64,000 nt of DNA from Ascoidea asiatica JCM 7603. Its lineage: Eukaryota > Fungi > Ascomycota. The translations under genes and the position numbers were made by a program. Positions 1-64,000 of the stretch are shown here, piece by piece (position 1 is the stretch's first letter; each line of letters starts with the position of its first letter). The stretch lies in the NCBI GenBank assembly GCA_001600695.1, contig BCKQ01000015.1, positions 196,552-260,551 of the forward strand, given 5' to 3'. Below the pieces are notes generated by a model, which was not told where the DNA came from, ran no database searches, and worked only from the letters and a program-made list of their open reading frames with translations.

Positions 1-104
1 CTCAACAACCTCCACGGCTGCCTACTCCTTAGGGCATCATATCAACCCTAAGGGCAAAGTATAGGTAACACCCTTGAGCGCCATCCATTTTCAGGGCTAG
101 TTCA

Positions 105-138
<34 letters not shown>

Positions 139-390
139 ATTCCAACTTCCATGGCCACCGTCCTGCTGTCTAGATGAACTAACACCTTTTGCGGTGTCTG
201 ATAAGGGTGTATTCCGGCACCTTAACTTCACGTTCGGTTCATCCCGCATCGCCAGTTCTGCTTACCAAAAATGGCCCACTAATAACTCATCATTCATTTG
301 TCCACGTTCAATTAAGAAACAAGGACTTCTTACATATTTAAAGTTTGAGAATAGGTTAAGATCATTTCAATCCCAAGACCTCTAATCATT
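1..390 (-). rRNA. RDN25: 25S/LSU rRNA fragment, probably a non-functional copy; runs off the left edge
   Basis: Reverse complement of conserved fungal LSU sequence. It contains the LR6 primer site CGCCAGTTCTGCTTACC (250-266) and TTGAGCGCCATCCATTTTCAGGGCTAGT. Homology stops abruptly after ...CCTCTAATCATT (390). ORF 113-385 is just the antisense reading of rRNA. Confidence 0.93.
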
Positions 391-1018
391 CAATAGAGGT
401 CTTCAAGATATTTCTTATGCTGATCAATATATGGCAAGATTTTGCGAATTTCAACATCCAAAATTATTTAAAGAACTAGAAAATACAATGAACTATTTAT
501 ATTTCTCAAAAGAAAAAGGTTTGATATTTAAAGTTGATAGTAATATTAATTTACTTGACATTTATTGTGATGCAGATTTTGCAAGTGATCTAAATACTAG
601 AAAAAGTAGTATCGGTATTAGAACAATGTTGGGAAATAATTCAAACTTTTCATGGCGTTATAAAGTGACTCCTCTTGAATGATCTTCATCAACTGAAGCT
701 GAAATTCAGGGATTGATGATGGCTTGTAAAGACGCCAGATTGTTAAAAGAAATCAAGTTGTTCTTAAACTATAATGTTAACCAAACTATTGATGCTTATT
801 GTGATAATGAAGCTGCCATAACTTTATCAAGAAAAGAAAATGTGAACTCTAGGAACAAACATTATGATATCCGATACCATGCCATTAAGGAAGATATCAA
901 CAATGGTACAATTCAAGTAGTTCACGTCAAATCTGAGTTAATGTTGATAGATATCTTAACAAAACCTTGTTCAAGAAAAGTATTCAAAAATCTTGGTGAA
1001 AATATTTTGAATTATTAA
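391..1018 (+). mobile_element. Ty1/copia pol 3' end (end of RT plus RNase H), degenerate
   Basis: Motifs QDISYA, YCDADFASDLNTRKS, SSSTEAE, YCDNEAAI, RNKHYDIRYH and DILTKP. One in-frame TGA at 680-682. Followed by purine-rich AAGGAAA and then TG at ~1044-1047, the likely 3' LTR start. Confidence 0.92.
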
Positions 1019-2619
1019 TTATTTTAAATACAAATTAAGGAAATGTGATGAATATTGCATCCTTAGCATTATTGTTTTTTAATTATAATTTGTTTTTGAT
1101 TATTGTTTTATTTTATTTTTTGTTTTTCAATTTGTTTATGTCACGTGTTTTTAGTACAATAAATGCAAATGTTAGAAAAGACGTTCAACATATATGGCTT
1201 TGGTTTTAATATCAAACATTATTTCGCCTGGTAATGAATTTAAATTGCCTTAACTCTCAAAGGGAAATTTAAATATTGTATATTAAAACTATCCTTATGA
1301 ATTAAAGTTTGTAGTTTTTTCTTTATATTCCCATTTCTTTGAAAAGGCAAGATTAATATTTTTTTGCAAAATGTAATTGGTTTATTAATTTGTTTCGATC
1401 ATTTAACGTAAAAAGTGGTTATATTTAATTGGCCAACTGCGGTGCTGCTTTTATTAACTGATTTTACTGGTCCTTGATTATTTTGTTCGATTGAACTTTT
1501 GGTTTTATCTCTTCAACATCCAATTTGACTTTGAGGTTATTTGATTTGGTTATTCTGTTTAATCAAAATTAATTTCCTCCTATTTTGTTTTTAATTTTTC
1601 CTACTAATTTGTTGGGTTTTTGGTTTTGTACATTAGTTTTAGTTTTTATTTTACGCATTAGTTTTGCTTTTCAAATTATTCTGAATCACTTGAATTTTCT
1701 TTTTTCATTTTATTTTATTTTATTTATCTTTTGTTTTGAATTATCTTAGTCTATTATATAGATTCGTTTAGTATATTATCTACATTTATTAATTTTATTT
1801 TACTAATATTAGTTATTATTGTTATTTATTATCCATTTATTTACTACTAAATTAAAGCTTTATTTAAGATCTCGTTTTCCATCTAAATGTTTTGAAATGC
1901 CTGTTTTAGGTCTCGAAGAGGAACGTAGCTTATTATCTGCCACGAATTCTCTTGAACAATAATAAACGAAAATAAACAGTAATGAATTTTGTTTATCTCA
2001 ACAAAAATGTAAAAGAAAGTAATAAATATTAATAAATAGAGATAAAAACATTAATAAATAAAAATAAAGTGAAGTAATTAGTAATGACTAAAATATTAAA
2101 CTATTGCATGAGAGTTGATTGGATGGCTGGTATAGTGACGAATAAAATTGATGGCATATGGATAGGGGAAATCAATTATTGGTTAACCCATTTACACTAA
2201 TAAGCCTTGACGTTTATTTGAAAGTGTCAATAAAATATCAATACTAAAAACTGTATTATAAACTTCCAATAATAAGTAAAAAATATTTAACTAAAATCTT
2301 AAAAATTGTACAATCTTTAAAATAGATATTTGATACAGTTATATATCAAAAAATTGAAAATGAAACACCGAAGTAATATCAGATATAAGAATGATACAAA
2401 ATTGTGTCAAAGAAAGTACAAATATTAAAAAAGAAATAAATATAAAAAAAAAAAACAAGAGAGGTAACTTTTTAGTAAGAATAATGAGAAAATGATTAAT
2501 GGTTACTTTGATTGACTATCGTACCTACTAAGATCTTAAACGATTAAAAAACGATCTTTGTGACCAGAATAACCGCCCACGCCCTTCTTGAACAAATTAT
2601 TTCGGAATGTTTTGTGAGG

Positions 2620-5600
2620 ATTTAGAATAATTTTAATTGATCTAAGGGATAAGGGGTTTTAAAAACAGTACCTGTTAATGCTTTGAGTACTACGGTTGTT
2701 GATAATGGTTTTTCAATTTTAAAAGGACCTAACCATTTTCGGTATGTTTTCCTTTGTGTTCTTTGGCCTAAATGGCATTATGAACAACTAAAAGATCATT
2801 AATTTTGAATTCATATGACTCAACCTTATTATTTGTATCAAACACAATTTTCTTTTGCATTTTTCTGTTAGTTGAATTGGTTTCTGATATCTCAAGCTAA
2901 GGTTTTACGGATATTAAACCTTGAACTGTTTTTACGATCCAGGTGGCTAAAGTTAATTTTTACGGTTTACTGTTCAGTAACTCAATAAGATTATCCATAT
3001 ATAACGAAGCACCGAATCCATAAGTAAGACATCCAGGTGAATAACCAATACCTCTTCTAGTTGTCCATATATCAAAGCAAGATCAAATACTCAAATTACC
3101 TGACCAATTGGCATTACCTAACTTCCTGAGTGGTCTGTATATTGATAATTGAGAACCTTCACTTGTAGCATTGGTTTCAGGATCCAAATTAGAAATAATT
3201 GTTTGTTTAATACCAAGGTTTGAGCATATTTCATGAAACTTCTCATTATTATATTCTAAGCCTCCATCTGTCATAAGTTCCACCGGAGTTGCATATCAGT
3301 GAATCATTTCCTCTTTAACATTTGACAATTTATTTTGAATTTAATGTTTTAGAGGCCAATCGTTCAACATATAGTGTATGAGGATCTCTAAATAAAGTCA
3401 AATATATAAATCGATATTTCTCTTCAGATAACATAAGTGTTATTTCAACAATTGTTGAAAGCAAACCGTAAAAGATGTTCAAATTCAATGCAGGTTTTTT
3501 AAATTTGTGGGAGTAAGTAACAGTCATTGTCCACAGTTCTTTAACACATTATTAACTACCTTGGAACGTTTGGAAATATAATATTACCCTTCAATCTCAC
3601 CAAGTATTGAAGATATACTAGCGCGAGCTTGATGATGATAATGCATTATTAAACAGTATAACCAGAGACTGGTTCTGACTAGTCTGATAATTCCATGTGA
3701 TTTTTTATAAAGTTTTTCATTTGCCAAAGCAGCAAACACAAATTAAATGAGAATTTGATATATCAGGTAACTCAGAAGTTTCTGTTGAATTAATCCATTT
3801 AGGAAGTTGATGTGTGCCTGGGAAGTTAATTATATCTTTAACTGGAATGTTTTTAAGCATGTTGATATTATCCTTCAAAACGATAGTCATTATTCGCCAT
3901 TACGATGTTTTAAATAGATGTATTTTAGTTTCATTTAGTTTATTCAACCCGATTAATCTTAGCTGATTTGCCAGCATCAGAAAATCAAAACTTTGACCAC
4001 TTAATAATTCAACCTCTTTTGAAGAAACTAATGATTCACTTTTATCTTCTTTTGCCGGATCATCCCGAACAAAATTTCATGCATTGTGGAAAAAATATCT
4101 ACTGGATTATCATTTCCTTTGAACATAAAAGATCTAATAATTAAATTGGGGTATTGTTATAAAAGCACTCCTAATCATTGTATTTGGTAGACTAGTTGGG
4201 TTAGCTCTATTATGTTACTGAACAGAATCATTGTTATTCGATAGTATGACATTATTTCCTGGGAGCTAATTTTTAGAGGTTTCAATTCACCTTTTTATAG
4301 CTAAAAATTCCAACTCATGAATTGGTCTGTTATTTTCACTATAATTAAATGAACCGGATTGAAATTTTAGTTGATATTTTTTTACAGTGTTTAATAAATC
4401 GGCCGAGATGGATTCCCACTCTTGCTATGGGATGTCGAACTGACACAATATACCAGACCATTCTTAAAATATAACATCTGTAACAAAAGCGGTAGTTCTA
4501 TCATTATTATAACCATCTAGATCATCATTATTGTTTACGTTCCTCTTTAATGATTCTAGTGCCTTAGTGCCCGAAATACTCCATTGGTTAATAATCTTAA
4601 TGGTATTTTTTACACTATGTTTTTTCTTAAGTAGATGATAAAAGGTCTTTGCCATATATGCAAAGGTATTAATAAAAGATCTGTACAAGTTTTGAACACC
4701 TAATATTGATCTAAGATCTTTAATTGATTCACGTTTTTTAATGGTTTAATTTTTGTACAAGCATTGCCTGGAAGTTTTCTTTTCGCACTTTCAAACCTAT
4801 ATCCTATATATGTGAAATCCTGAGAGCATAACTGAAACATTTCTGGAGATACTTTCAAACCATTTTCTTTTAAGACTTTTAACCATCGGACACTAGATCA
4901 ACATGTTCTAGAGCAGCTCGAGGATCGTCAGGTTTTGATTTTGTTCTACTATTTATAGCATTATCATCATCAAGTAAAACTATCTTATCTGAGTAGTTAA
5001 AGAGAACTTTCAGGATCATACCTATAAATATATAAGGATAATATACAAATCCTCGAGGTAGTGTAGTATATTTCCTTTTCCCGATTGGTGAAAAAAAGCA
5101 GTTCTACATCCAAAATTTGACGGAATAGGAAGCTTGGAGTAAGCATTTTGTAAATCAATCAGTTTCCCATATTTACAACTTGACAGTTCCATAAAAAACA
5201 TTTCAGTGGTATGATTTAAACCGATGGATTTTCTGGCATATTGGTTGACCTTTTTCAAGTCTTCTAATAATCTAAGTTTACGATTTTTTTTGTTTTTGAA
5301 AAAATATCATTATTATACACCGAGCTATAATCTGTATTTTGTTTTGTAGCAGTCATCTCTTTGCATTGATCAATGGGCTGATCTTTAATCGGTAATAAAA
5401 ATAGCATCCCCAGTCTTTTGCCAATGAGTTTAATTAGTAAAGGATTGATGACTTTTGACGGTTTTAGCCGTTCCAGGTAAGTCACCAGGAAATTGCAAAA
5501 CGGTTCTAAGATTTATTTCAGATATCTTCTTTTGAGGTTCAGCTCTAAGGTATGCTGCTAAGGTTTCAGCGAAAATAACACTATAATGATTATCAGTTAA

Positions 5601-9832: not shown

Positions 9833-10867
9833 TGTTGGAAATAATAGAGATCTATATATGCTACGGCATATATTGGTACTAACACCATAGGTGGTGAAGG
9901 TTTAAAAGACACCTATCTATCGTAAACGTAAAAGAATTATGTATTCTGCAGTAATGTCTGTACACTATGTATAATTATGCATAGATATGCATAATTAGGC
10001 ATAAATATACATATTGATGCATATTGTTGCATTAAGTTGCATGAAAAATACATCAATTTACATGACCTTGCATGAGTCTGTGTACAGGTACACAGATACT
10101 CGGATATCATGTGATATTCTAGTTACATGTCCTTGGTCATGTGTGCTTACGTCGGGTATATCGTACAAAGTAGAAAAGACCTTGAGATTGGTACCAGCCA
10201 TAGTCGTACAACCTTTAAGGGCATATTAAAGCTAAGCCACTCGGTACGAGGAGAATTAAAGCGGAGTTAGGATTTAGCATCTATCCGGATAGAAGTTAAA
10301 TCCGAAAGGTCACTCGCATCCAGGCAGGGACGCCTTGTGGGTTGCTATATTGGCTAAGCCTACTTTCATTTGAGATAAGGTATAATTCTCACTGCGTCTA
10401 CCGAATTGTCTCGGAGTAAACAGGAGACTAGTGGAGATAGTCCCGTAAGGGATCTATTCCGAGTACGGCTTCGGGATTAAAGATTACTCACGGCAATTAG
10501 TGCGATTGTCTACCCCACTGCAAAGTGGGCTGATTGGTTTTACTATAGTAAAATTGAAATATGAATTTGAATTGATTTCTAATCAAGTTTTCAACCATTT
10601 TTACAAGGTAAACTTGATTGCCACCCTGATTCTACGAAGGAATCCTGGGACTTTTGGGGATTCCCGAGAATTCTCGATAGTTCTGCGGGACGCCGTAGGA
10701 ATTCTGAATTAATATAAAAGGAATCGATTTCCTCTTATTTTTTTATATAATTTATTTAGTTTTCTTTTTAGATCATCGGTTAGCACGAGTTAATTGATTA
10801 ATACATAGTTTGTAAGTACGTAAAATTTATATATTCGATTTTGTAAAATGAAGGAAAATTTACAACA
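9833..10867 (+). repeat. Solo LTR, family A copy 2 (1035 bp)
   Basis: Begins TGTTGGAAAT and ends ATTTACAACA, with a perfect 5-bp TSD TTATT (9828-9832 and 10868-10872). TATA-like TATAAAAG near 10713. Colinear with 48555-49588. Confidence 0.95.
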
Positions 10868-16049: not shown

Positions 16050-17760
16050 AGGACTGTCTGCACAAATGCTTCTTTCATCATTTTTGACTTCAGAAACTAC
16101 AATCGGGCATTTGAGAACCCATTAATAATTTTGGTGTTATTGCTATTAACAAGTTGCCTCCCTTTTTTTTGTTTTTTTAATTTTGTTTTGTTAATTATTT
16201 TGATATAACTTTCTATCAGGTTCTCATCCGATATTTTTTGCGTGTTTCATTTTGCTTTTTCGATACGTGTTTTACCCTTTTTGGGTTGTTTAATACGGCT
16301 TTGCATCAGTTTTATATCGCATATTATTTCAGTGTTGTACTCGTTTTTTTGCTACATAGTAGTATCGAGTTCTTATGGGTTTATATGTCCGATTTTTTAC
16401 TTCACATTTATGCTAGACTTTTGTATCATTCCCTTTTTATAAAAATACGTTTGTATCCCTTGTATTTCTGCTACTTAGGTAAGCTCAGATTTTGTCTAAT
16501 ATCCTTTTTTAATTTGTATTTGTTTAATGTATATTTATTATCCAAATCCATATCTAAATGTGAATCATTGAAAGTATTACATGACCAAGTTTACGCTTTG
16601 ATATCAGAATATGGAAAGAAATTCCAAAAATAGTCACATATTGTTCCGAGAACTCAAGTCTAAAGGCCTAAATTTGTAGCTTATTGCCTTCAAGTCAACA
16701 TTTATTTCGCAATTCGAATAAAGCTAACGGCAATCATTTTGCAATTAATTTTTGTTTTTCAAAGCCGAATTGTTAGTTGCATATACAGAGAACACCTTTT
16801 ATATATGGGAGATAATCAATTTTTATAAGACTATTTCAATGCTTTAAAAACGGTAAATCAATTAGATCCCTCTGAAATTCAAATGTTGAAACATAAGAAA
16901 TATAATTCAACGATTAATTTAGCTTTTGACAGTCAGATTCAATCAGCAAAGTTTGGATTTATTTTACATTCAGTTTTAATTCCTACCAACTGAAATCAAT
17001 CAAATTATCAAAAAGGAATTTCTGAAATTATTTGCCAAATAATCCTAGAGCTTCATAAATATAGCTTAAGAAATCTAACATTAAGTGAACTTATCAATTC
17101 TCATAATCAAAACTTGAATAACCTTGAAACCACAACAATGGAACTAAAAATCATTACTCAAAAAGGTATTACCTCATCAACTAGTAATATTTTCAAAAAT
17201 GCGCTTTCGGAAGAAATCGGATGTCTTACCTGTCTTGCCCGCGTTCTCGTATAACAAACTTTAATTAATAAAATTTACTATAAGAAAGCCAAATCGATAA
17301 TCGGAAAAATTAAAATGGATCCAACAAATTACACTGATAATGATTTACGCGTTTTCCTTGTTGATTCGAATGGGCAGGTTTTATCCAAAATGGAATTATG
17401 GAACACAATTAAAAGTAAATAGCACAATATTTCCAAAGCGATGTTTGAAAAAATATTTCCTAAATTTCATCTAGTGATTGAACTTTTATCAGAGTCTGAT
17501 TCTGATGATCTTCCTATTCTAAATTATTTCAATTTCTTCTTTTTATTACCAGTTATTATTATTTTTAAAGACTAGTGATTACCATTTATTAGTCTTTATT
17601 AGTCTTTATTATTCTATATTACTATATTGTACATTGTTTTTTATTAGAATATGCCACAAACATCTTATTTTTTTATTATAATTTTACTTTTATTTTTCTA
17701 TCATCGCCAATTATCTACTCTAATAAGTATATTAAGGTTCTTTTTATTTTTATTTGACTC
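16050..17760 (+). mobile_element. Repeat module copy 1: post-integrase-like segment, 30-bp array and degenerate orphan ORF (~16550-17560)
   Basis: Colinear with 45590-47260. Translation IWKEIPKIV...NHFAI...YMGDN...LNNLETTTMELKII...MDPTNYT is conserved in both copies, with stops and frameshifts. Confidence 0.8.
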
Positions 17761-17832
17761 AAATCTCTGTAATAGTTTCTTTGTAGAAAATATTTGACTC
17801 CAACCATGACATCAACCATGATATTGAGGAGA

Positions 17833-18213
17833 TGTTTGATTTGAAGTAAATTCACTGATTTTGAATAAGTATTATCCGCTAGTAGAAACATGCGACTCTA
17901 CATAATTGGCACCAATATCACCAGGTTCTACAGCTTAAATTTGTTCAAATGAAGTAGGTTAAAGTAAATTTTCTTTCTACCGAATTTATTTATACTGCGT
18001 TATAGCTCCTACGTGTCACGACTACGTCAATGAGCATGAAAGTCATAGCACCTAATATTAGTAAATGACAGTCATATACCAGTAAAAATGGTTAGTTAAA
18101 GTTTTTACTCAATTACGTAATGATCATTAACAAATTATGCAATTCACTAAATTCAGAAAATGCTTCAAATCAAATTTTTTGAAACATTTTAACATTGTTT
18201 TCTACTTTCAACA
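17833..18213 (+). repeat. Candidate 3' LTR preceded by a polypurine tract
   Basis: GAGGAGA (17826-17832) directly followed by TGTTTGA. Candidate end TTTCAACA at 18213. Confidence 0.45.
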
Positions 18214-26143: not shown

Positions 26144-29100
26144 GTAACATGACTGATGAACAGAACAAGCAAGTTACCCTGCGGAAAATATGGACTTTCT
26201 CGTGAAAAAAACATGCAATTTGAAATTTTAAAAATTCCTAAAATAAAAAGGTGATTTCCTTTTTACAATTTATAACAGACCGAATAAAACAATTTTTAAA
26301 AAAGCGTGTTAGTTATATCAACCAAGGTAATAAAAGTTTTAGAACACTGAATTAAAACATTTTACATAAATTTCAAAGATAAAAATCATTAAAATAAATA
26401 ACACTAAAGAAAAGTTAATCCAATTAAATAGGTAAACCTTGAAGGATAATTTATTTTTTTCTTTGACACAGAAAACTAAAATATCCTTCAACACTTTTAC
26501 AAAACTAATTGGCATCCAGCTCATGGTCTTTTTCAATAACAATTTATAAGAGTTGGTTTTCCAAATTAAGCACCAATACAATTTATTACTTTCAAATAAT
26601 TAATAATATCCTTTCAGCTACAACTATGTCATTAATTACAATAAAAAAACATCAAGCTAGTTATTCAAAAAATATAAAATATAAAACGGCTATAAATGAA
26701 ATAGAAAAAGGAATGAAAGTGAGTAAGGCTGCAGCACTATTTCAAATAGATCGAAATCATTTGAAAAAAAGGTACTTAACCAATAGTATTAATTCTTTAA
26801 ATAATCATATTGAAACTAAAATAAGAAAAATTCCAATATCATTTGAATCCAAACTGGCCTACATTATTAAGGCAACTTTCAAAACTCAAATATCAATCCG
26901 AAAAGTAGATTTCATTAAATCTATTGAATTAGGTTTTAAGCAAATGAGTACCTCGATTACTTGCAGTGATAGCTCCATAATCAGTTTATTTAGAAGAAAT
27001 AAAATTATTTTTTCTAATAGAAACAAAAGCCAATTAGATGAGGCTCATTTCCATTTGTCAAACGAAATATTATTGAAAAATTGGTTTGAAGAGTTTAATC
27101 AAATGATCAAAAATAAAAAAATATTGGAAAAAAACATTTTCAATTTGGATGAAACAGGTGTTTATCCTGCATCTCAGTAAGATCATCGATCAGGTAATAG
27201 CACAGAAATTAAACTGAAAAAACCAAGTTCAACATTACCTACTGTAATTAAGGCAATTTGCTTAACTGGATTGCAAGTACCAGGATTTACACTTGTTCCT
27301 TCAACTAGTGAAAAACTGAATATTTCATTAAAATCAAGTGAAATTCAAAAATTATCACAAACTTACTTTTACCATTTCTGTAATAGCTGGAATACCAGCA
27401 AACTTCTCATGGACTACTTGAAATGGTTCCGAAATTATATCGTTGAATTTCACAATTATGAAAATTTCCTCATGCATTTACTTATGGATGGCCCCTCATG
27501 TCACTGTACCTCAGAAGTTATTATAAAAGCAATAGAGTTAAATATTAACTTAGTCAAATTCCCACCAAACTCATCTCCTTATTTACAACCTCTTGATATC
27601 AATTTTTTCAAGTATGATAAACCACAAATTAAACAATTTTCTACAGCTTATCAAAAATGGGGCTATTTTGATATAAAGAATTTTGAACAAAATGAAAAAC
27701 TCAACCACATTTTAAATATAGATGGTGTTTTAAATCAAAAAGATATTTTTTTGATCGAAATTATGTTAACAGACATATCAGAATTCAAAAACAACATAAT
27801 AAATTCATTTAAATATGCTGGAATAGAATCAAAAGTTACCAAAAAACTTTCTTTTATTCAGTTTAAAGCCATAAAGAGAGCTCTCAAATTGGCTAGAAAA
27901 TCATTTGAAATTTTAATAAAAACTGAAAATAATAACATTTTAATTGATTATATTATTGCAGCCACAAAACCCCTAGAGTTAAAAAATCAGACTTTCCAAA
28001 TAATTGATATTCTTTTCTGCATTTTTGGTGATAGTTTTCCAGTTAATAATCAACATTCAACTTTCAATCCAGAAGAAGAAGTCACCAAATTAATAACATA
28101 CTCTCTAATTGAAAAGTCTATAAAATTTCAAACCCATTTGGAATCGAATTTAAAATACATGGTAGAATTGATAAGTAAAATTGAAGGGGGCCTTGATAAA
28201 AATGTAAATGTGGAAGCAATTAAAGATATTTGCTTATTTAGAAGTGACAATCCAGAATTTTCTCAAATGTTGTTCCATTGCCGAAAAATGTTAATTTCAA
28301 AACTTAACTCTCACCTGTTAGTCACCTCGCAAATGCTCAAAAACTATGGAGCTTTATCTAATTGGAAATTCTGTAAACAAATGGTGCTTCAAAGGTGGTT
28401 CTCAGAACTATCAAACGAAGACACATTTCTGGTGTAAAATGAATTCTTGGAACCCATTGTGCACGAAGCCAGTGCAATTGCAAAAGCAAAGCAACACATA
28501 TTTGCAAAACAAAAGTTAAAATTAATAATATTCAACCTTTACCTATCTAATTATAAATGGCATTATAAAAATTAAATAGAATTACAGCTCTCAAGTAAAC
28601 ATCTTTTTCCCCAGTTGCAATTTAATAGCATGGCCATTTATTTGATATTTCGTTAACACACATTTCAATAACTTCATTAACTGTCTCATGATTTTGGTAA
28701 TTTAACATACTAAACCAGTAAAGAGAACGCTTTTAGAAGTAACGAAATTATTATGTTTTTTATTTTATTTTTCATTTGAATTATAGTTATGTTTAGTTTC
28801 ATTTAATTGACCAAATATAGAATTTTGAAAATTTGATTGACCACAAGCTGCAGTCTAATTACAAACAGTTTTTGATGATCAACCAATGGTTGAGTGGCCA
28901 AAACGATATTTTTTGAAGGATGTGGTATTATTTTTGTTATTAAAAACGAGACATAGTAGTTGATGATTTGTTAAAATTGGAGTTACCAAATGGTGTTGAT
29001 CAATTGAAAATTGATTACTAATTTTATTTGATTTGAAAATAGAACATAAGAATCGTAGTTAAAACAAGGTTAAGATTATATCAGAAATGTTCTGCAAAAA

Positions 29101-29299
29101 TTAATGAAATTGAATAAGTTAAATAAAATTTGAATATTGGAAAATGGGAATTTAATAATTTGGAGATGTTATATAGCCTTTACATTTTGTTTTATTTTCA
29201 AAAGAATGGTTCTAACTAATTATTATGCATGTTGTTTTCACGACAAAGTCTATTTTTTTGGCAGGGTAACTTGCATGTTCTTTTCATCAGCCATGTTAC
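26144..29299 (+). mobile_element. pogo/Fot1-type (Tc1-mariner superfamily) DNA transposon with ~75-bp inverted repeats
   Basis: Transposase from ATG 26626 with an N-terminal HTH-like region, NIFNLDETG, LLMDGPSCH and FPPNSSPYLQPLD. ORFs 26509-27180 and 27271-28437 are in the same frame, split by one TAA (27178-27180). Inverted repeats at 26144-26217 and 29226-29299. Confidence 0.9.
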
Positions 29300-31899: not shown

Positions 31900-33918
31900 G
31901 TATTCTTTGGCCCTAGATATCTATGCCAGAGGATCAGGACGTTTGGGTGAATAATCCCGATTTATTTACTATCAATGGAGGTTTAGTGAACAACCTTATA
32001 CGATACAATGTTGCTAAACGATCACCAATTAGAGATGCAAATTTGAACAGAATTAAAAATCCAATGGTAAAACTATATCACTTAATTAATGCTTCAAGAG
32101 AAAAAATGATCAATGGAACTTCACAGCCAGCACACTCAGGTTTAAGAGCATATATGACTTCCACAAAAAATCAAGTAATAGAAATAAGCAAAATTGAATA
32201 TAAAGACAAACCAATGGCTTGCGATATCCCCACCATTTACAATCAAGCCGAGTACGTTTACAAGGCGCATGTTATTCTTGGGAAAGTTTTCAAATTGCAA
32301 GTGACAAACAAGAACAGATGGAGAATCAGCAACCGCTTACTATGCAATTTGATAATCAAATGCGTAAATTGCTAACGACACTAGTTGAAATTATTTTGGG
32401 CCATTTTTTTCTTCGCCGGATATCCAACAAAATTGCAATTAAGCGTAGTGATACTTTTATCAGGAAAAAGAGTATAGGGATAATGGGTTCATGGGAGTGA
32501 TTTATATTTCGACACTCGAAGAAAAAACCCTTAAAGCGTCACATTCAGCCAGGTTTATTGGTTTACCAAGAAATAAAAACGTTCAGGTTTGTCCCTTCAT
32601 GACATTTAGTTGTTATATCCATTATATTTTGGACTATTCCCTTTCAACTCATTTCCTAAACACATAACTGTTTAATCTAAACAATCGTGGTATGACATAA
32701 AACTTTTATTCTTAAGCAATCCAAATAATTCTGTCTCGTACGACTACGAATGTACCTTAATAACAACTTTTTAAATATAGCTGTTTGAGTCCAAAGCCAT
32801 AACGCACTTTGGACGAAACGGTGCCGGTATGATTGCTGATACGAAACGCATGAATATCGATGAAATTCGTTCTTCCAGGCATTTGAAGTGGATGTCTTGA
32901 TTGAAAGTTATGTTCGTGACATAAGTATGCAATTTCACATTACAACTCTTGGTTCGAACGGACTGAGACGTACTGGTTAGATCGTACATGTCTTGAACCA
33001 GATGAATAATTGCAGAAACTTATCTTTCCCTGGCTTTACGAGGCCATATCAACATATGATACTACTAAGGATACTGATAATGGTGCCGAAGGATTTTTTA
33101 TTTTGCTAAAAACATTTAGACTTACAATCCCTCAAGATATGGTTGCCCTAGCCCAAAATCGAAGCTCTGGGTTTCAGTTCATTCTTTTGAGCAAAACTAC
33201 AGAATTTAAAGATTTTGAACATCGTTGGAGAAAAAAAAGTCACACATTGATTACAAAAAAATCTCATTGCAGAACTTTCATATTACATATCAAAGACGTT
33301 GTTCGTACAGTACTTGCAATACCGCTACAAAATCTATTCTCTTACTCCGCAGCTATTTTAAAGCGCAAAAATAAAATCAATGATACCTATTTGATCCTCA
33401 CCAGATACATCACATATATGATTGATAAACCCCAAAATCAAGATTCTGCAAAGGATGCTGCAAGGGATAGAAATAAACCCATTGATAACCCGAAAGAAGT
33501 TGGAGAAAAACATATGAGAAGTAAAGATATTGCGAGGAGCAAGAATGATAAACTTTCTGCAGTAGCCAAGAATATGCAGCGTCAACCATTAGTATCAGGG
33601 CAAACTTTTAAGATGAGCAGAACTATCAATAATGTTACATGCGTCCTCGATGAATCGTATACTAAAGAACCAGTTTGTGTAAATGATATGGAAATGAAAT
33701 ACGCATCAAAATGGCGATCAGGTTCTGCTGACCGAAGCTTCTTGCACAAAACAAAAAAAACGATTATGATTGTCGAAGAGATTCACTCCAATGCCATAGC
33801 CCGCACAGCTGCAAATCGCAAAACCATTGGTCGTAAAGTGGATGCTTATAATGAAACAAGAGGATATTCATTGAATTCCATAGCTTATTTAACTGCAGAG
33901 AAAACGCACGGTATCTGA
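31900..33918 (+). mobile_element. Crypton-like element relic 2 (tyrosine recombinase/NDC10_II plus GCR1_C domain)
   Basis: THFGR (HxxR) at ~32800, LIESY candidate catalytic Tyr, LIFPW...GFFILLKTFRLTIPQD, and C-terminal FKMSRTINNV...MEMKYASKWRS...RSFLHKTKKTI, the GCR1_C pattern. Confidence 0.82.
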
Positions 33919-37371: not shown

Positions 37372-39543
37372 TTATTCAGTTTCTTTATATTTAATAAATC
37401 TATTTAAATTATTAACAACTTCATCAGCTCTTTCTTTTAAATCTTTTTGAAGCTTTTTATTAATATATTTCTTACAAAGTTTTGGTAATTTTATTGAAAT
37501 TTTTTTAAAATTATTTAAACCAATTTTATTTCTTTGAAAATTTTCAAAATCATAATCAAATTCTTTATCTCCATAAATATCAAATAAATTATCAATATTA
37601 TTTAAAAGTAATTTAATATCAATTTTAATTATATCAATATTATTAAAAGCATAATCATTAATTTCTAAAATTAAAAAATTTCCAATGATTTTATTAATTT
37701 CAATATGATTTTTAATTTTACTTAATTCAGATAATAAATTTAAATAATTATTTATAAAAAAATTAATATCTTCAATTAATTCAATTTCAAAATTTTTTAA
37801 AATTTTTATTAAAAAGTAATCATTAATAAATTTTCTTAATTTATTTATTAATTCAATTATTAAATCATTTTTCATAATAATTTTATTATCTAAAATTAAA
37901 TCATTTTTAATAATTTGAAAATTTGCAATTAAAATTAATAATAATTTATTAATTAAATTTAAATTTTTTAAATTAATTTCAAAATTTATATTAAAAAAAA
38001 TTGAATTTAAAATTTTATTAATTATTAAATCATTAAATATTATATTTTTCCAATTATTTAAAATTATTTTTAATTCATTTTCATTATTAATATTCTTATG
38101 TTTATTATTAATTATATTATTAAATAACCAAGATATATTAATTAAAATATTTAAAGATTTAATTTCAAATTCTTCATTTGGTAAAAATTTAATTAAAATT
38201 AAATTTGATAAATCTTGATTTAAAGAATTTAAGAAATTTAAATTATATATTAAATTATTATTATCATTTATAATATCATTTGAATTACCAATTAATTCTA
38301 ATAAAGCTAATAAAATATCTAAAGATAAATCAATTGATTTATAAAAATTTTTTAAATTTTCTTTTTCATTTAATCTTTTAATAATTTTTTCTTTTCTAAT
38401 ATTTTCATTTTCACCAGTAATTAATAAAAAATTTTGATCATCTAAAATATTATAATTTTCAGTTTCTTTTAAATTTAAATTTTTTAAATAATTTACTAAT
38501 TCATTATATATATTAAAGATTGATTCCATTGATTGTGGATTGTAATTGGAAATGTCATTAAAAATGTCATCATCATTATCATTATCATTATCATTATCAT
38601 TATCATTATCTAATTGAATATCATTATCGAGATTATTATTGAGATCATCTAAATCATCATCTAACTGAAATTGAATGAAATTTTGAAATTCAAAAATTTG
38701 TAAATTTATACCATGAATTAAAATATTTGTTAATGGATTTAAGTTTTTAAAATTAATGAAATTTTTAAATAATTTTTTTGAAAATTGAATAAAATTATAA
38801 TTTTTAATTAAAATTTTTAAAAATTTATTTGATAAAGTTGAAAAATCATAAATTAATTCTAAAATTGAATTATAAAGATTAATATTTATAAAATTAAAAT
38901 TTTTTAAAATTAATAAATTTTTAAAAATAAAATTTAAAATTAAATTAATTTTATTTGAATTTAAAATTTCATTAATTATTAAATTTGATGAATTTTTAAT
39001 TATAGAATTTAATAAATTTAATAAAATTTGAATAAATTCAAAAGATTCATCATTTTTTTCATTTAATAAAGATAATAAATTAAATTCAATAGTTTTAAAA
39101 ATATTTTTTCTCCATAAATTTATTATTAAATCATAATTATTATTTAAAATTAAATTATTTAAAAGATTAAAAGATTGAAATTTAATTTGATTATTTGAAT
39201 GATTTAATAAATTATTTAAAATTATATTAATTAATTTTTCTTTTAAAAAAATTTTATTAAAATTTTCAGTTTCTATTAAAATATTTATAGAATTTATTGA
39301 TAATAAAATTTGATTAATATTAAAAGAATTTAAATTATTTAATAATAATAATATATTTTTTTTTGAATTTGATTGAATTTGAGTTAAATCATTATTACTA
39401 TTATCATAATTGTTATTATTATTACTATTTTGATTAAGTAAAGTTTGATTTAATTGATTATTTTGTTTAATAATTTTTTTTTTCAATGAAGATTTTTCAT
39501 CTCTAAATTGAGCTAATTTTGAAATTTTTTTTGCTTTACCCAT
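37372..39543 (-). CDS. SYO1: Symportin 1 (Syo1/HEATR3), ARM/HEAT import adaptor for Rpl5-Rpl11
   Basis: Intact 723-aa ORF with basic N-terminus MGKAKK, LWRK motif, acidic internal loop, and C-terminal LFDIYGDKEFDYD...KERADEVVNNLNRFIKYK characteristic of Syo1. Confidence 0.85.
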   Translation of the reverse strand: MGKAKKISKLAQFRDEKSSLKKKIIKQNNQLNQTLLNQNSNNNNNYDNSNNDLTQIQSNSKKNILLLLNNLNSFNINQILLSINSINILIETENFNKIFLKEKLINIILNNLLNHSNNQIKFQSFNLLNNLILNNNYDLIINLWRKNIFKTIEFNLLSLLNEKNDESFEFIQILLNLLNSIIKNSSNLIINEILNSNKINLILNFIFKNLLILKNFNFININLYNSILELIYDFSTLSNKFLKILIKNYNFIQFSKKLFKNFINFKNLNPLTNILIHGINLQIFEFQNFIQFQLDDDLDDLNNNLDNDIQLDNDNDNDNDNDNDDDIFNDISNYNPQSMESIFNIYNELVNYLKNLNLKETENYNILDDQNFLLITGENENIRKEKIIKRLNEKENLKNFYKSIDLSLDILLALLELIGNSNDIINDNNNLIYNLNFLNSLNQDLSNLILIKFLPNEEFEIKSLNILINISWLFNNIINNKHKNINNENELKIILNNWKNIIFNDLIINKILNSIFFNINFEINLKNLNLINKLLLILIANFQIIKNDLILDNKIIMKNDLIIELINKLRKFINDYFLIKILKNFEIELIEDINFFINNYLNLLSELSKIKNHIEINKIIGNFLILEINDYAFNNIDIIKIDIKLLLNNIDNLFDIYGDKEFDYDFENFQRNKIGLNNFKKISIKLPKLCKKYINKKLQKDLKERADEVVNNLNRFIKYKETE

Positions 39544-45589: not shown

Positions 45590-47260
45590 ATCTGAGTCCT
45601 GTTGACAGAAATTGTTCTTCGATCATTTCTGACCTCAGTAACTACAATAGTCAATTAGTGTAATCTTCAAAAAAATTTCATTTTAATTTTACTACAAAGT
45701 TACCTTCTTTTTTATTTTTTTATTTAATTATTTTTTATTTTCTTTTTAATTTTTGTGATACATCTTTGTATCAGTTTTACATCGGATAACGCTTCCGCGT
45801 TTTTTTTGTTTTTTTTGATACAAGTTTGTATCAGTTTTATTATTGGATACATTTTTCTATCACTTTTATTTTTTTGACACACTTTTGTATCAATTTTATA
45901 TCGGATGTTAGTTCGGTGTTTTATTTATTATTTCTTGATACATATTGTTATCCATATCCTATCGGTTTACATATCCGGTCATTTATTTTACACTTTCCAT
46001 ACACTTTTGTATCATTTTTATTTTTTTGATTCACTTTTGTAGCTTTTTCAACTTTTATGCTACCTATTAAAGGGAAATTTACTCTGTGTTGTTTTTTTAT
46101 TTTTCTTCTTTTCAATTTTATTATTATTATCAACTCAATTTGAAAATGTCAATGAATGGAACTATTACATCATCAACTTCAAGCTTTGATATTCAAGTAT
46201 GGAAAGAAATTCCTAAAATAGTCAAATATTATTCCGAAAACTGAAATTTACATTTTTATCTTGATAAGACTTCATTTAATAGCTTATCTCCTTCAATTCA
46301 AACTTTATTTCTTAATCTAGTCAAAGCAAGCGGCAATCATTTCCCTATCACTTTTTATTTTGTCAAAGCGGAATTATTAATTTCATATAAAAATAATACC
46401 CTTTCATATATGGGAGAAAATCTCATTTTTTTAAATTATTTAAACTATATTTATAGACTAAATCATTTTCATCTCTCTGAAATTGAAATTATTAAACCTA
46501 ACAATTACAATTCAATTATTAATCTACCGTTCGATAGTCATATTCAATCAACAAAGTTTATTTTTATTTTACATTCAATTTTATTTGCAACCAATCAAAA
46601 TCAATTAAATTATCAAAAAGAGATTTCCGGAATTATTTGTGAAATCATCCTAGAACCACATAAATATAACTTACGTAATCAAACATTAATTCAACTTATC
46701 ATTGCTCATCATCAAAATCTCAATAATCTTGAAACCAGAACAATGGAACTAGAAATTATTAGTCAGAAGGTATTACGTCATCAATTAATAAGATTGTCAA
46801 AAATCAACTTCAGGAAGAAATCCGATCCCTTAACCGTCTAACCCGCTATAGATTATACAAAAATTCAAAAAATAGAATTTATTATAGGAATGGAAAATCC
46901 GAAATTGAAATATTGTAATTGATCCAACAAATCACACTAATAATGTCTTACACTTTTCCGTGTTGAATCCAATAGGCAGGTTTTATGGAAAACGGAATTA
47001 TAGAAAAAAAATTAAAAGTAAGTAGCCCAATATTCCGAAAAAGATGTTTGAAATAATAATTCTCTAATTTCATTTAGTAATTGTAGTCCCGTTAGGATCA
47101 GATTCTTATGATCTTGTTATTCCAAATCAATAAATTTTTTTCCTTTTATTACTACTTATTTTTTTTTTATTACTATTTATTACTATATACTGCATTGTCT
47201 TTTATATAAGTATGCCCCAAATATCTTCTTTTTTTTATTACAACTGCAGTTTTATTTTTT
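45590..47260 (+). mobile_element. Repeat module copy 2: post-integrase-like segment, 30-bp array (45756-46045) and orphan ORF (ATG 46146 to ~47130)
   Basis: One frame runs from ATG 46146 (MSMNGTITSSTSSFDIQVWKEIPKIV) through ORF 46410-46841 with few stops. Colinear with 16050-17760. Confidence 0.8.
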
Positions 47261-47990
47261 TGTCGAATATTATTCTTATTATAAGTATTCATATTCAATT
47301 ATTTCCATAATCTCTCTGTAAAAATTTCTATAAATATATTGAGAAAGAAAGGTCTATTTATATTAACTTGGCCGTAGATCAGCAAGATATATATCTTGTA
47401 AATCTTGCCAGCTACTTCCCATAAGTATGGCAAAACGGATGCAACTTGGGAGCCGCAAATAAAGGAGGATATCACTTTCTACCTGTAATATTTGTGGTTG
47501 AAATTACGTCTCCTAATCTCAAACAACAAGTTAGTATTCTGCATCTACAATTCGATTGAAGGTACAAGTAAAATTTCTGTTTGATAGAACCTACAAGGAC
47601 TTTCTCTATAAGTTGGTACATTCGGCTATCGGAGTAGCCAATGAATTTCTTGTAGCTAATCAGTAATCAATTAACCCTCATGAAGCACATGACATCGCGT
47701 TGTTCTCCGAGGACCGTTATGCATGGCAAGGCATCACGTCTTCTACAACCGCATATTAGCCCCTCACAGAAATATATGAACTAATAACTGCTTTGTACAA
47801 TTACCAATTGGAATAGGAAACCTGCCGCTCGGCTGTCCGTGAATCCGAATCACTCGAGTATACCGCAATCAAGTTCCCGTCTCCCTGATTACGTAATCAG
47901 TTACCTAATCGGGACCACGCCAGTGAATCTGAGCAATGACATGGAACATTGTACCTGGAGAATACTTCAAGTATCTCCATGTTACATCTT
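47261..47990 (-). repeat. LTR family B copy 1
   Basis: Homology to 63470-64000 starts exactly at TGTCGAATATTATTC in both copies. Minus-strand TATAAATA near 47360. Right end uncertain (candidate ...CATGTTACA near 47987). Confidence 0.7.
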
Positions 47991-48089
47991 GTAATCTGTA
48001 TGCAGACAATACATATTCACTGTTGATTGTAGTTCGAACGAAATATCTAATTATTACTAAGAAGATATCTAATTCAAATTATAAACAAT

Positions 48090-48509
48090 TGTTAATTAAA
48101 ATATAAAATGTATAAAAATTATATAAAAAATATGGGAGGTTAGTGCCCTATTTATATTAGTGGTAAATAGGAGCGGATAACCCAGCTTAAGAATAAATTT
48201 GTAAATTTAGTATGTGAAAGTTCACTTCCCATACTTAAGAAAAGAAATAAAATAAAGTATTGTTCTAGAAGACACTACGTCATTCTAAGAACAAACACGA
48301 AGATTCCAGTTCATTCGAGATGCACACAGAACTTCGAAGAAAGAATAAATAATGCAGACCCAGAATGTTCCAGTACAATTAACATGCACACGGAAGCTCT
48401 GAAAACGCAATAGAATGTAGTCGTAGAACAATCTATGCAATCTTAGAAAGTCTAAGAATAGCCTAGAATATTCGAAAACAATTCCAATAAAAGAATAAAA
48501 TGATTAACA
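48090..48509 (-). repeat. Solo LTR-like element C
   Basis: TGTTAAT...ATTAACA 7-bp terminal inverted repeat and a minus-strand TATAAATAGGG. No matching TSD. Confidence 0.5.
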
Positions 48510-48554
48510 ATCACTGTTAAGGATCACGGCTCGTTTGCTAATACTTGATCAATA

Positions 48555-49588
48555 TGTTGGAAATAATAGAGATCTATATATGCTAGGCCATATATTGGTA
48601 CGAACACCATATGTGGTGAAGGTCTAAAGGACACGTATCTATAGTAGACGTAAAAGCGTTATGTATTATACAATAATGTGTGTACACAATGTATAATTAT
48701 GCATAGAGATGCATAATTACGCATAAATATACATATTGTTCCATAAAGTGCATTAAATTGCATCAAGAATACAACAATTCGCATGACCTTGCATGAGTCC
48801 GTGTCCAGGTACACAGATAGTCGGATATCATGTGATATTCTAGTCGCATGGCATAGGTCATGAGTGCTTGCGTCAGGTATAGCGTCCAAAGTAGAAAAGA
48901 CCTTGAGATTGGTGCCAGCCATATTCGTACAAGCTTTAGGAGCATATTAAAGCTTAGCCACTCGGTACGAGGAGTATTAAAGAGGAGTTAGGATTTAGCG
49001 CCTATCCGGGTACAAGTTAAATCCGAAAAGCCGATCCAGGTAGGGACGTCTTCTGGATAGCTGGACGGGCTAAGCCAACAATCATGTGAGATAATGTATA
49101 ATTGTCCCTGCGTATACCGAATTTTCTCGGAGTAAACAGGAGACTAGTCGAGATAGTCCCGTAAGGGATGTATTCCGAGTACGGCTTGGGGATTAAAGAT
49201 TATTCCCGTCAGTTAGTGTGATTCTCTACCGCACTGGAAAGTGGGCTGATTGGTTTTACTATGGTAAAATAGAATTATGAATTTGAATTGATTTCTAATC
49301 AAGTTTTTAACCATTTTTACAAGGCAAACCTGATTCCCACCCTTATTCTACTACGGAATCCTGGAACTTTTGGGTATTCCCGAGAATTCTCGATAGTTCT
49401 GGGTACCCCTTAGGAATTCTGAATTAATATAAAACGAATCGATTACCTCTTATTTTTTATATAATTTATTTCGTTTTCTTTTTAGATCATCGATTAGTAC
49501 CAGTTAATTTATTAATACATAGTAAGTAAAACATTTGATTATATAATTCGAAATTGAAAATTTGTAAAATGAAAGAGAATTCACAACA
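48555..49588 (+). repeat. LTR family A copy 3 (1034 bp)
   Basis: TGTTGGAAATAATAGAGATC...AATTCACAACA, colinear end to end with 9833-10867. Flanks CAATA/CTAAT do not match. Confidence 0.93.
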
Positions 49589-54999: not shown

Positions 55000-57900
55000 T
55001 CACCTATACTAATAGTTTAAACATTTTCCGCAATAAAATTTTATCGGTTTGCGGTGTTTTGTATTTTTCATATTTCTTACTATTTTCATTTTCTTTATTG
55101 TTTTGTTTTTTCCTGATTATTCATCAAGTTTGGTGGATTAATGTCTAATTGTTGGAAAAATGCATTGACAACATTTTTAGTGGATCTGCCGCTTCTAGGA
55201 GCAATTGATTCAGTAAAGGTTGCTGATAATGAATCAGCAATTATCCTTTTATTTCGAATTCTGTTATCATCAAGAGTCTCAGGAGTACTGAAAGAATATT
55301 GTAGGGGTTTGAACATTAATAATGGTTCACAATTACCACTTGTAACTAATGGTTTGCTTAATGTTGAAACTTGAGTATAATCTTTGGGCCAATCTGTTGT
55401 TGAATGTGTTTTAGTAGCTGTGGCAATAGCTCTAGGACTAGATCTAGAAGAAGATTTAGAAGTGGATCTAGATGTTGCTTTGGAAGTGGTTTCTTTATTA
55501 CGTTTTGAAAAACTAGTGGATTTGGTTATTAATCTAATTTTGCTCACACCCTTTCAATTTTGTTTTAAATTTCTATTTGAATTTGAATTTGAATATGAAG
55601 TTTTATTTACAATTTAAATTGGATTTTTTATTTTATTTGCATTTTTATTTGGATTTGATTTTTTCAGTGATTTTTTAATTGAATTTAAAGTATTATCGTC
55701 TGAATGATCTACAAATACAGCACAGCATCTGAAAAAACAATTATAATCCAAAGTTTTATGTCATTTATTTTTCCTTTCCTTCTATTCTTGGTTTTTGATA
55801 TCATTTTTTTTAAGTGAATAAATTTGAATTATCATTGATTTATGGAATATGGATGATTAATTTTATTCAATGTTTTGAATTAAATTCTTCTAAATAATAA
55901 TTTCTTTTATTAGATGTGTTTAAAAACTCATCCTATATGTCATTTTTTTGATTTGATAAGTTTCATAAAACATTACGATCCACCAACAACTTTTGATTAC
56001 CCTCCAATGCTTTACTTGGATCACAAATATTTTGCGTAGAATTGAATAAATTTATGCTTCAAAGGAATATGATTTAAAAACCCTTTACAATTATCGACTA
56101 TGGAAGATAAAAGATCCATTCTAATTTTATTTTCAGCAACAATTGCTTGTTATTTTTTTCTCATTTTATTTGTAATTGTAGCCTTGTAGCTTTCATTTTT
56201 TCTGCTGCATCTATTGCCTTTTCCTGGGAATCCTTATGTGTAGAACAATCTACAAGTTGTTCAAAAAATACTCAAAATAATCCAAAATATTTTACATTTG
56301 ATTTAATACAGCAATTTTGTTTGGATTTAGTAATTGTTTTTTTTTTCCAATATATAAAGTAATATCTTTGGAATTAATAGATGCGGAGCTAAAATTTTTT
56401 TTCTAACATTAGTGACAACACTACTAGTTATATCCTCTTTTCTTACAATTGCTTTTGGAGCCCTTTTTGATAATTTTGAATGATTGAAATTTTCAATATT
56501 TTCACATTCACAAAGGGTGAAAGGACAATCACAAGATAATGAATTAACTGTTCTGAGTTTTCATTCAGTTTACAAATTCGAATATATACATTTCACTTAC
56601 TACAAACTATGTATTAATCAATTACCTTGTACAAATCTATGGTCTAAAACAAAAATTAAATAAATTAAATAAAAAAATAAGAGGAAATGGATTCCTTTAA
56701 CATAATTATCATTCCTACGGGGTTCATGACCACCATCGAGAATGCTCGGCATTTCCACAACTTGCTAATTCCTCCGCAGTATCAAGGGGAAAATCAAGTT
56801 CGCCTTGAAAAAAGATTTGAAAACTTGACTAGAAATCATTATAAATGCATATTACAATTTCCCCAAAGTAAAACCAATTATCCCGCTTTGCAGTGGGGTT
56901 GACAAGGACACTGATTTCCCGGAATAAACTTTAATCCAGAACCCGGGACTCGAAATAGATTTTTAACTGACTAGGACCAGCAGTCTCCTGTTTAGTCCGA
57001 GCTAATTCGCTATAAGCAATGAGAATTATACTTTATCACCCAGGAAACAACGCTTAGCCAATTGAACCATCCAGAAGGACTCCCTTCATGGCTCCTGACG
57101 GCCTTTCGGATTTAACATTTACCCGAATAGTCGTTAAATGCTAACTCCTTTTTTATTCTTCTGGTTCCGCTGGCTTAGCTTTAATAGGATCCTACAGGGT
57201 TGACGCCCATGTCTCGTAAAATACCCTGCTGGTTTCTGATTTATACTGTATTCCTGACCTGATGCAGCATGTCTTATGTTAGGTAATTAGAACATCAATT
57301 TTGTCCCACTGTCTGTCCTGCTGTACTGAGAAACATACAAGGTCATGAGAATTCTTGTATTGTTTGTTAAACTTACTGCAGCATTCTGCATTCATGTGTC
57401 TATTAACGTTTAGTTATGCTTCTCTAAGCATAATTGCTCCTAATGTATACACAATCCTTCATAATACATGACTGCCTTACAGCCACTATCGTTACGTGTC
57501 TTGGAGACGTGCGCCACCTATGGTGTTGGAACCAATATATGCCTTAGCTTATATAGATCTCTATTATTTTCAATATTAATAGATCCATTGCTAAAGAAGA
57601 AGATTCAACTTTTAAAACAATATTGATAACATGACTACATAATTCTCTTTCACATTCATATTGACTAATATTAGTATTCTTGGATTTATTTACTAAATTT
57701 TTAAAACCAATATGATAAGACAAACATCTCGGTTTTCAAAAAGACTATAACATAACAGGAATCACCTGATTAGAGAACTGCAATCCTTGGCGTCAATTGG
57801 ATATTTATTATATACCCTACTATAATCTTTCAGTTCGAGCACTACTATTTAAGTTATTACTAATCCTGTATCATTGAAACTTTTTAAATCAATAATTAAT

Positions 57901-63469: not shown

Positions 63470-64000
63470 TGTCGAATATTATTCTTATTATTAGTATTCA
63501 TATTCATTTATTCCCATAATTTCTATATAAAAATTTATATAAAAATATTGAGAAATGAAGGTCTATTTATATTCATTTGGACCTTGATCAGCAAGTAATA
63601 TATCTTATAAATCTTTCTACCTATTTCTCATGCGTATAGCAAAACGGTTGCTACTGGGAGCCCAAAAGCAATGAGGATCTCATTTCGTATCTGTTATACT
63701 TGGGGTTAAAATTACGTCTCCTAATCTCAAACTACAAGTTAGTATTGTCCATTTTCAATTTGATAGAAGGTACAGGTAGAATTTCTGTTTGATAGAACCT
63801 ACAAGGACTTTTTCTATCAGTTGGTACATTCGGCTGTCTGAGTAGCGAATCAAGTTCTGGTAGCTAATCAGTAATCAATTACCCCTCATCAATCCCCATG
63901 ACATTACCTTGCTCGCCAAGAACAGTTAAGGATGCCAAGACATCAGGTCTTCTATAACCACATATTAGCCCCTCACAGAAAAATATGAACTACTACTTGC
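63470..64000 (-). repeat. LTR family B copy 2, runs off the right edge
   Basis: Colinear with 47261-~47795, for example the shared GAAATTACGTCTCCTAATCTCAAAC-like block and AATTTCTGTTTGATAGAACCTACAAGGACTTT. Confidence 0.85.

Follow-up and report, generated by a model that had tools for sequence, protein, structure and literature searches.

Did a Ty3/gypsy retrotransposon family in a budding yeast carry a third gene? The accessible text of PMC5014426 describes such elements of budding yeasts as having two ORFs, and an earlier, sequence-only reading of the Ascoidea asiatica JCM 7603 genome proposed that one family held an additional, env-like or accessory ORF in the position of env. We followed up this proposal in the stretch of 64,000 nucleotides on which it was based (hereafter the window). 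We find a real dispersed repeat of 1.65 kb that carries a dead orphan gene and whose link to a gypsy element is probable. This repeat module is composed of a start segment, an array of dyads, a decayed ORF and a T-rich tail (Table 1). Two parts of the proposal, the gypsy link and an extra coding sequence that was once under selection, are upheld by our analysis, while the env position of this sequence and its env-like nature are not.

Table 1. Features of the repeat module and of the adjoining gypsy pol (window coordinates).
Feature	Position	Strand	Basis
Module start, likely the start of an LTR U3, TG at 45600	45599..45707	+	Common to the DNA just 3' of the gypsy integrase
Array of the 18-bp dyad TGATACA-N4-TGTATCA, period ~60 bp	45740..46050	+	Dyad and repeat analysis
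Decayed orphan ORF, ~325 codons read-through	46146..47120	+	Reading frame, comparison of copies
T-rich tail, likely the module's 3' end	47110..47260	+	79% identity between the 45-kb and 16-kb copies
Another full copy of the module, in a worse state of decay, with its TG at 16055	16053..17697	+	Alignment to the 45-kb copy
Pol-adjacent copy: start segment and two dyads, without the ORF	2331..2567	-	Alignment
Purine tract rich in G, probably what remains of a polypurine tract, 6 nt upstream of the TG at 2566	2573..2589	-	Tract scan
Ty3/gypsy pol in heavy decay: RT, RNase H and an integrase with a terminal GPF motif	2622..5450	-	Profiles and motifs

The DNA match that unites the three loci is real, and the sequence motifs quoted for them are present. 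The reverse complement of 2331-2567 aligns with 45599-45833 at 71% identity over 239 nt (E 2e-22) and with 16119-16265 at 70% over 161 nt; with the array and the T-run left out, the remainder of the match scores above every one of 1000 dinucleotide shuffles at either copy, and also above all 1543 tiles of the window. The start segment of the 45-kb copy is 71% identical to the reverse complement of 2458-2567 and 68% identical to 16053-16165. Between the 45-kb and 16-kb copies, similarity runs through the whole module (1597 nt at 72% identity and a further 67 nt at 79%), and their T-rich tails are more alike than all of 255 T-matched tiles. At both loci the start segment leads into the array, as had been described, and the dyads are confined to the three copies. 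At the pol-adjacent copy, weak similarity may continue to ~2190, and tblastn finds no trace of the ORF; the caveat already attached to the proposal, that no copy in the window joins pol to the ORF, thus stands. Copies at other loci were taken from two alignments against the window of contigs assembled from DNA runs (X2 being one of these runs). Because the best runs may be the window's own sample (0 differences over 3 kb), we treat these contigs as other copies in the same organism and not as independent support.

Both window copies of the module's ORF are pseudogenes. It had been presented as an intact frame of ~330 codons; the span is indeed about 325 codons, but the frame is broken repeatedly. 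In the 45-kb copy, the ATG at 46146 is followed by a TGA at codon 33 (46242-46244) and then by an open stretch of 198 codons (46245-46838), and comparison with the 16-kb copy places one-base gaps at 46765, 46906, 46954 and 47002. The longest open stretch in the 16-kb copy is 86 codons, and the pairwise alignment of the two copies contains 12 non-triplet gaps, some of which compensate one another. In one X2 contig, at ~7x single-copy depth, a single base is missing at 46415 and another at 46627, changes not seen in the other contigs at those sites, so the most recently multiplied form of the module seems to be frameshifted as well.

Our data support the view that this ORF was once coding and that selection acted on it over part of its history, with a modest signal. 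The frame of the 45-kb copy has one stop in 231 codons, whereas even the most open of six frames across 5000 shuffles has at least 5, which argues for a coding past. Across 186 aligned codons within the first 206, the two copies show 33 synonymous and 77 non-synonymous differences, giving a dN/dS of 0.54 (Fisher p 0.008); the two remaining forward frames give 1.53 and 0.84, and those on the reverse strand 1.37, 0.67 and 0.74. A permutation that keeps the base-change spectrum places the number of silently changed codons at 24 versus 14.8 expected (p 0.0096). The dN/dS comparison that the sequence-only reading had suggested therefore comes out below 1 for this first part of the ORF, while the segments after 46766 give no significant purifying signal. 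The named peptide motifs (WKEIPKIV, YMG and others) are common to both copies, as had been noted, but the differences between the copies are not mostly synonymous, and the products share 63% of their amino acids.

The ORF product is an orphan across a wide range of searches. None of 262 candidates from a word-index protein search is homologous to it, and a search of 1.84 billion representative proteins yields no credible homologue; the sole match there, to a 1348-residue tandem-repeat protein over 38 residues, was rejected as spurious. JGI metagenomes (0 of 590 stretches) and IMG/VR (0 of 66) contain no match to the product, and Pfam, PHROGs and PDB sequences match it only at E 0.02-0.07. The best ESM Atlas score, 0.79, is at most a lead. 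An AlphaFold model of the product reaches a pLDDT of 36 and finds no fold at E<=0.001, and the model is too poor to be used as evidence.

Nothing in the product points to an envelope protein or to infectivity, and the suggestion that the ORF is env-like is not supported. The open 206 codons contain no transmembrane stretch (best 19-residue hydropathy, 0.96); the ORF has no furin site (R-x-K/R-R), CCHC knuckle or protease motif; and no similarity to viral fusion proteins appears in Pfam, PHROGs, PDB sequences or the 1.84 billion representatives. The open part of the ORF has one cysteine. Translation of the T-rich tail gives a hydropathy of 3.25, versus 3.08 from the non-coding array, and we rejected a C-terminal transmembrane anchor because the hydrophobic tail is no higher than this non-coding, T-rich control.

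The array between the start segment and the ORF is specific to the module. Dyad units lie at 45756, 45816, 45845, 45875 and 45997, with weaker ones at 45936 and 46027, and all nine matches in the window with at most two mismatches fall within the three module copies, against 0.42 matches expected. The 7-bp half-site is one base away from the Ste12 pheromone-response element (PRE), TGAAACA, and like Ste12 sites it occurs in pairs. These pairs are arranged head-to-head and 4 bp apart, whereas the layouts favoured by Ste12, in the available portion of 10.64898/2025.12.09.693310, are head-to-tail at 4 and tail-to-tail at 3. Dyad orientation and spacing thus give no support to reading the array as Ste12 sites, and we keep this resemblance as a lead only.

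What ties the module to a gypsy element is the pol-adjacent copy. The decayed pol there has the gypsy order RT-RNaseH-IN, with profile matches to RT_RNaseH_2 (E 4e-6) and rve (E 0.037) that both fall short of Pfam's cut-offs. The codons of the GPF motif begin at 2729 and the integrase stop is a TAA at 2622-2624; no chromodomain is seen in this pol, and one read-through frame of it has no match among longer proteins. Upstream, pol is cut off by a copia 3' LTR at ~5696-6689. The module's start segment lies directly after the integrase, in agreement with the original description, beginning 55 nt past the stop. The purine tract between the two is 17 nt long and one of five of its kind when both strands of the 64 kb are scanned, by a threshold set post hoc; it is interrupted, and fails a test for 13 purines in 15 positions. 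In the accessible parts of PMC5014426 and PMC4139406, gypsy polypurine tracts have a similar position relative to integrase and LTR.

The module's 5' boundary is sharp. When aligned, the window copies share one starting point with a TG (at 45600, 16055 and 2566), and the 300-bp flanks upstream of it lack similarity to one another (scores of 19-22, equalled or exceeded in 197, 225 and 40 of 300 shuffles). Contigs of X2 join the module at 45593, at 45595 and, in three cases, at 45599; at least these five contigs, together with the window copies, start within 7 bases of one boundary. For the three contigs that join at 45599, flank agreement is 0.61, compared with simulated values of 0.59 if the flanks are unrelated and 0.69 if two are related and one is not; only 0.6% of simulated sets of the latter kind are as low as 0.61, in a simulation that assumes the agreement figure to be an unweighted majority. 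The flank upstream of the 45-kb copy has a paralogue that runs to 45600 and departs there. The simplest reading takes the shared segment for the beginning of an LTR, and it appears to fit this boundary better than a leader following pol, since a leader would not be cut alike at seven or more loci.

On the 3' side, the 45-kb and 16-kb copies are alike through the T-rich tail to 47259 and 17697, respectively. One X2 contig, by rank likely the high-depth one, leaves the window sequence at 47220, and a different repeat begins at 47261. For the module, with 28% divergence between its copies, we found neither a terminal inverted repeat nor an unambiguous CA terminus, and at the 45-kb and 16-kb copies no CA is followed by a perfect target-site duplication of 4 or 5 bp; the three one-mismatch sites recovered in this test all lie far from the shared end. 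An apparent extension of the 16-kb copy into the repeat at 47261 is not significant (16-kb tail against 47255-47400: reached by 29 of 1582 tiles). A T-rich match was considered as the module's far end in the pol-adjacent copy and rejected: it is reached by 1 of 1543 and 1 of 1356 tiles, but by 30 of 167 and 10 of 255 tiles matched for T content. The polypurine tract plus TG...CA that had been taken for the end of one ORF-bearing copy apparently corresponds to 17826-18186, past the last clear homology at 17697. This segment consists of a run of 7 purines and then TG...CA, the inverted ends of which are 5 bp long. Nothing corresponds to it at the 45-kb copy, and it is single in the window; it could be a small LTR of another family. 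Within the window no pol is flanked by two modules, the 5' side of the gypsy pol having been replaced by the copia element, and no tRNA gene lies beside any module copy.

Abundance bears on how the parts of the module belong together. Summed contig depth, which is a rough guide and gives no copy number, is 8-18x single copy along the start, array, ORF and tail, compared with 38x for a copia LTR and 128x for a 490-bp solo LTR, the window's two true LTR families. Since depth is similar along the module, the ORF appears to travel with the start, and the start does not behave as a short LTR in excess over the ORF.

The window also contains other elements. A second dispersed repeat at 47261-~48020 recurs at 63470-64000 (84% alike); it starts with TG and has a sharp left edge, the copy at 63470 sits behind another flank, and 10 contigs differ at one site. 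One forward frame of this repeat has a dN/dS of 0.46 (permutation p 0.014, six frames tried) and no Pfam match. At 48024-48513 lies the 490-bp solo LTR. Its inverted ends measure 7 bp and its target-site duplication 4 bp, and we rejected it as part of the module because it has this duplication of its own. An unusually long LTR of ~1.03 kb is present in four copies (5696-6689, 9833-10867, 48555-49588 and 56549-57599; 71-88% alike), of which the one at 9833 has a 5-bp target-site duplication. One copy follows motifs that we take to be copia RT and RNase H, and for this reason we rejected the 1.03-kb LTR as that of the module's gypsy family. The solo LTR and the copia LTR downstream of the 45-kb copy are both unrelated to the module. 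In contigs from other loci, pieces of copia LTR are joined to the module's leader (at 46144, on the opposite strand) and to its start (at 45599, on the same strand), likely through nesting. Elsewhere, a eukaryotic LSU rRNA fragment at 1-439 (minus strand) abuts a copia RT/RNase H remnant on the plus strand, and a DDE_1 (pogo/Tc1-like) element at 26144-29299 has 74-bp terminal inverted repeats and a transposase with one stop. A 302-codon open frame with a GCR1_C domain, possibly transposon-derived, occupies 33010-33915 (plus strand). An intact, intronless Syo1-like gene lies at 37375-39543 on the minus strand (E 6e-13 to a solved Syo1); it has only 11-20% G+C and is rich in N, L, I and K, and no identical sequence occurs in the protein collection. 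A Pfam match identifies a Mannosyl_trans3 fragment in the window as well; both, together with contigs totalling about 20 Mb, point to a likely budding-yeast host.

To account for the module, we tentatively favour a model that we nonetheless place somewhat below an even chance: its copies may be solo copies of a long gypsy LTR that carried a now-dead, likely soluble accessory gene. In this model, plus-strand priming at the purine tract would fix the module's 5' end, and recombination between LTRs would leave solo copies with unrelated flanks. The dyad array could be a U3 enhancer or an operator for a dimeric protein, and the ORF would be expressed from the LTR, positioned like the accessory genes that retroviruses encode in U3. 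Retroviral accessory genes encoded in the LTR or its U3 include nef and the sag gene of MMTV; the likeness lies in the inferred position of the ORF within a terminal repeat, whereas the host here is a fungus and the LTR status is itself inferred. Consistent with the model are the single TG boundary with unrelated flanks, its placement 55 nt past the integrase stop and 6 nt past the purine tract, an ORF as abundant as the start, and the presence of 1.03-kb copia LTRs in the same genome. Against it, no exact target-site duplication, terminal inverted repeat or clear CA end was found, no two modules flank a pol in the window, the homology of the pol-adjacent copy ends after ~240-380 nt with no trace of the ORF, the purine tract is interrupted, no tRNA gene adjoins the copies, and the ~7x contig carries two one-base deletions in the ORF. 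A length of 1.65 kb is also far above the 127-685 bp given for Candida LTRs in the available text of PMC4139406. As a further guess within this long-LTR model, and an unlikely one, the ORF product would be a dyad-binding regulator of the element's own transcription.

Only slightly less probable, in our view, is a chimera or an independent unit, in which the gene would have no place in the gypsy family. An LTR fragment that had left this family could have captured an unrelated orphan gene and then spread passively, through segmental duplication or by moving non-autonomously; alternatively, a mobile unit of non-LTR type, its dyad sites subterminal, could have inserted behind pol by chance. DNA transposons typically carry dyad arrays close to one of their ends, and we count this in favour of such an origin together with the ORF-less pol copy, the lack of a target-site duplication or LTR end, and the window's character as a nest of unrelated elements. 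In the same direction, the frameshifts of the ~7x contig imply that the module could recently spread without the protein in cis. A transposon origin is opposed by the lack of a terminal inverted repeat and of any transposase match for the module in profile and protein searches. A chance insertion in the same sense, less than 60 nt past an integrase stop and behind a purine tract, would be unlikely, and the sharp boundary with unrelated flanks speaks against ordinary segmental duplication.

We consider it unlikely that the ORF is instead a very divergent gag. In that case the start and array (~500 bp) would make up the whole of a 5' LTR with gag behind it, the T-rich tail would be a non-coding spacer between gag and pol as in Yarrowia Tyl3, whose GAG and POL are 324 bp apart in the accessible part of PMC5014426, and the copies would be 3'-truncated elements. 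The same boundary evidence applies, ~325 codons is gag-sized, and the homology of the pol-adjacent copy ends within the array region, as that of a 3' LTR would. However, no plus-strand frame of the module has a gag Pfam match, a CCHC knuckle or a protease motif, and in neither copy does a TGG, as a tRNA primer site would have, occur between the array and the start codon. No pol lies behind either copy, copies of the module end near one place (47220-47260), and the start is not commoner than the ORF, whereas solo LTRs usually are. The env position as originally proposed, with pol followed by a long 3' untranslated region containing the array, the third ORF, a polypurine tract and a 3' LTR, and with the ORF-only copies as fragments, seems to us quite improbable: stitching the copies together does give the same-sense order pol, segment, array, ORF, and a purine run with TG...CA lies 130 nt beyond the 16-kb copy, but no copy joins pol to the ORF, cuts at no fewer than seven loci would need to fall within the same few bases, the one strong purine tract precedes the segment and none follows the ORF, the two ORF copies share nothing downstream, polypurine tract and LTR included, and the product has neither a transmembrane stretch nor a tail appreciably more hydrophobic than the non-coding array.

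If the long-LTR and env-position arrangements are taken jointly, we give a third gene in this gypsy family about an even chance. The more specific proposal, a gypsy family with a third, orphan gene in its LTR or just after pol whose product bound the adjoining dyads as operators, is conceivable but doubtful.

The family shares with Ty3, with Tyl3, Tyl6 and Ylt1 of Yarrowia and with Tca3 and Tca8 of Candida the order RT-RNaseH-IN, an integrase ending in GPF and a purine tract before TG. These budding-yeast elements are described with two ORFs and LTRs of a few hundred bp, whereas the unit found here measures 1.65 kb and contains an orphan ORF beside its dyad array; no target-site duplication or CA end was found for it, and no tRNA gene adjoins it; several yeast gypsy elements target tRNA genes, in the available text of PMC5911963. 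Outside yeasts, Athila, Bagy2 and bdelloid ORF3 likewise present an extra same-sense ORF tied to a gypsy element, and Boty of Botrytis is listed as an antisense case in the same group of LTR elements with additional ORFs. The extra ORFs of plants and rotifers lie upstream of the polypurine tract, while here the purine tract precedes the module and no pol-ORF link is seen. Env-like ORFs of plants and rotifers also have transmembrane domains and splicing (PMC7264820), whereas no transmembrane domain is seen here. Gypsy elements that carry env are treated as metazoan in the accessible portion of PMC13524379, and the available parts of PMC13148404 and PMC5911963 provide further background. Our literature search, judged from listings in a collection with few subscription papers, returned no report of a third or LTR-borne ORF in a budding-yeast gypsy element.

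The weight of these findings is limited by the fact that both window copies are dead, that the ~7x contig is frameshifted and that no element joining pol to the ORF was seen. If the proposed association is true, however, an extra orphan gene beside a dyad array would extend to yeasts the capture of accessory genes seen in plants, rotifers and retroviruses, and the module family would offer a simple test of self-regulation.
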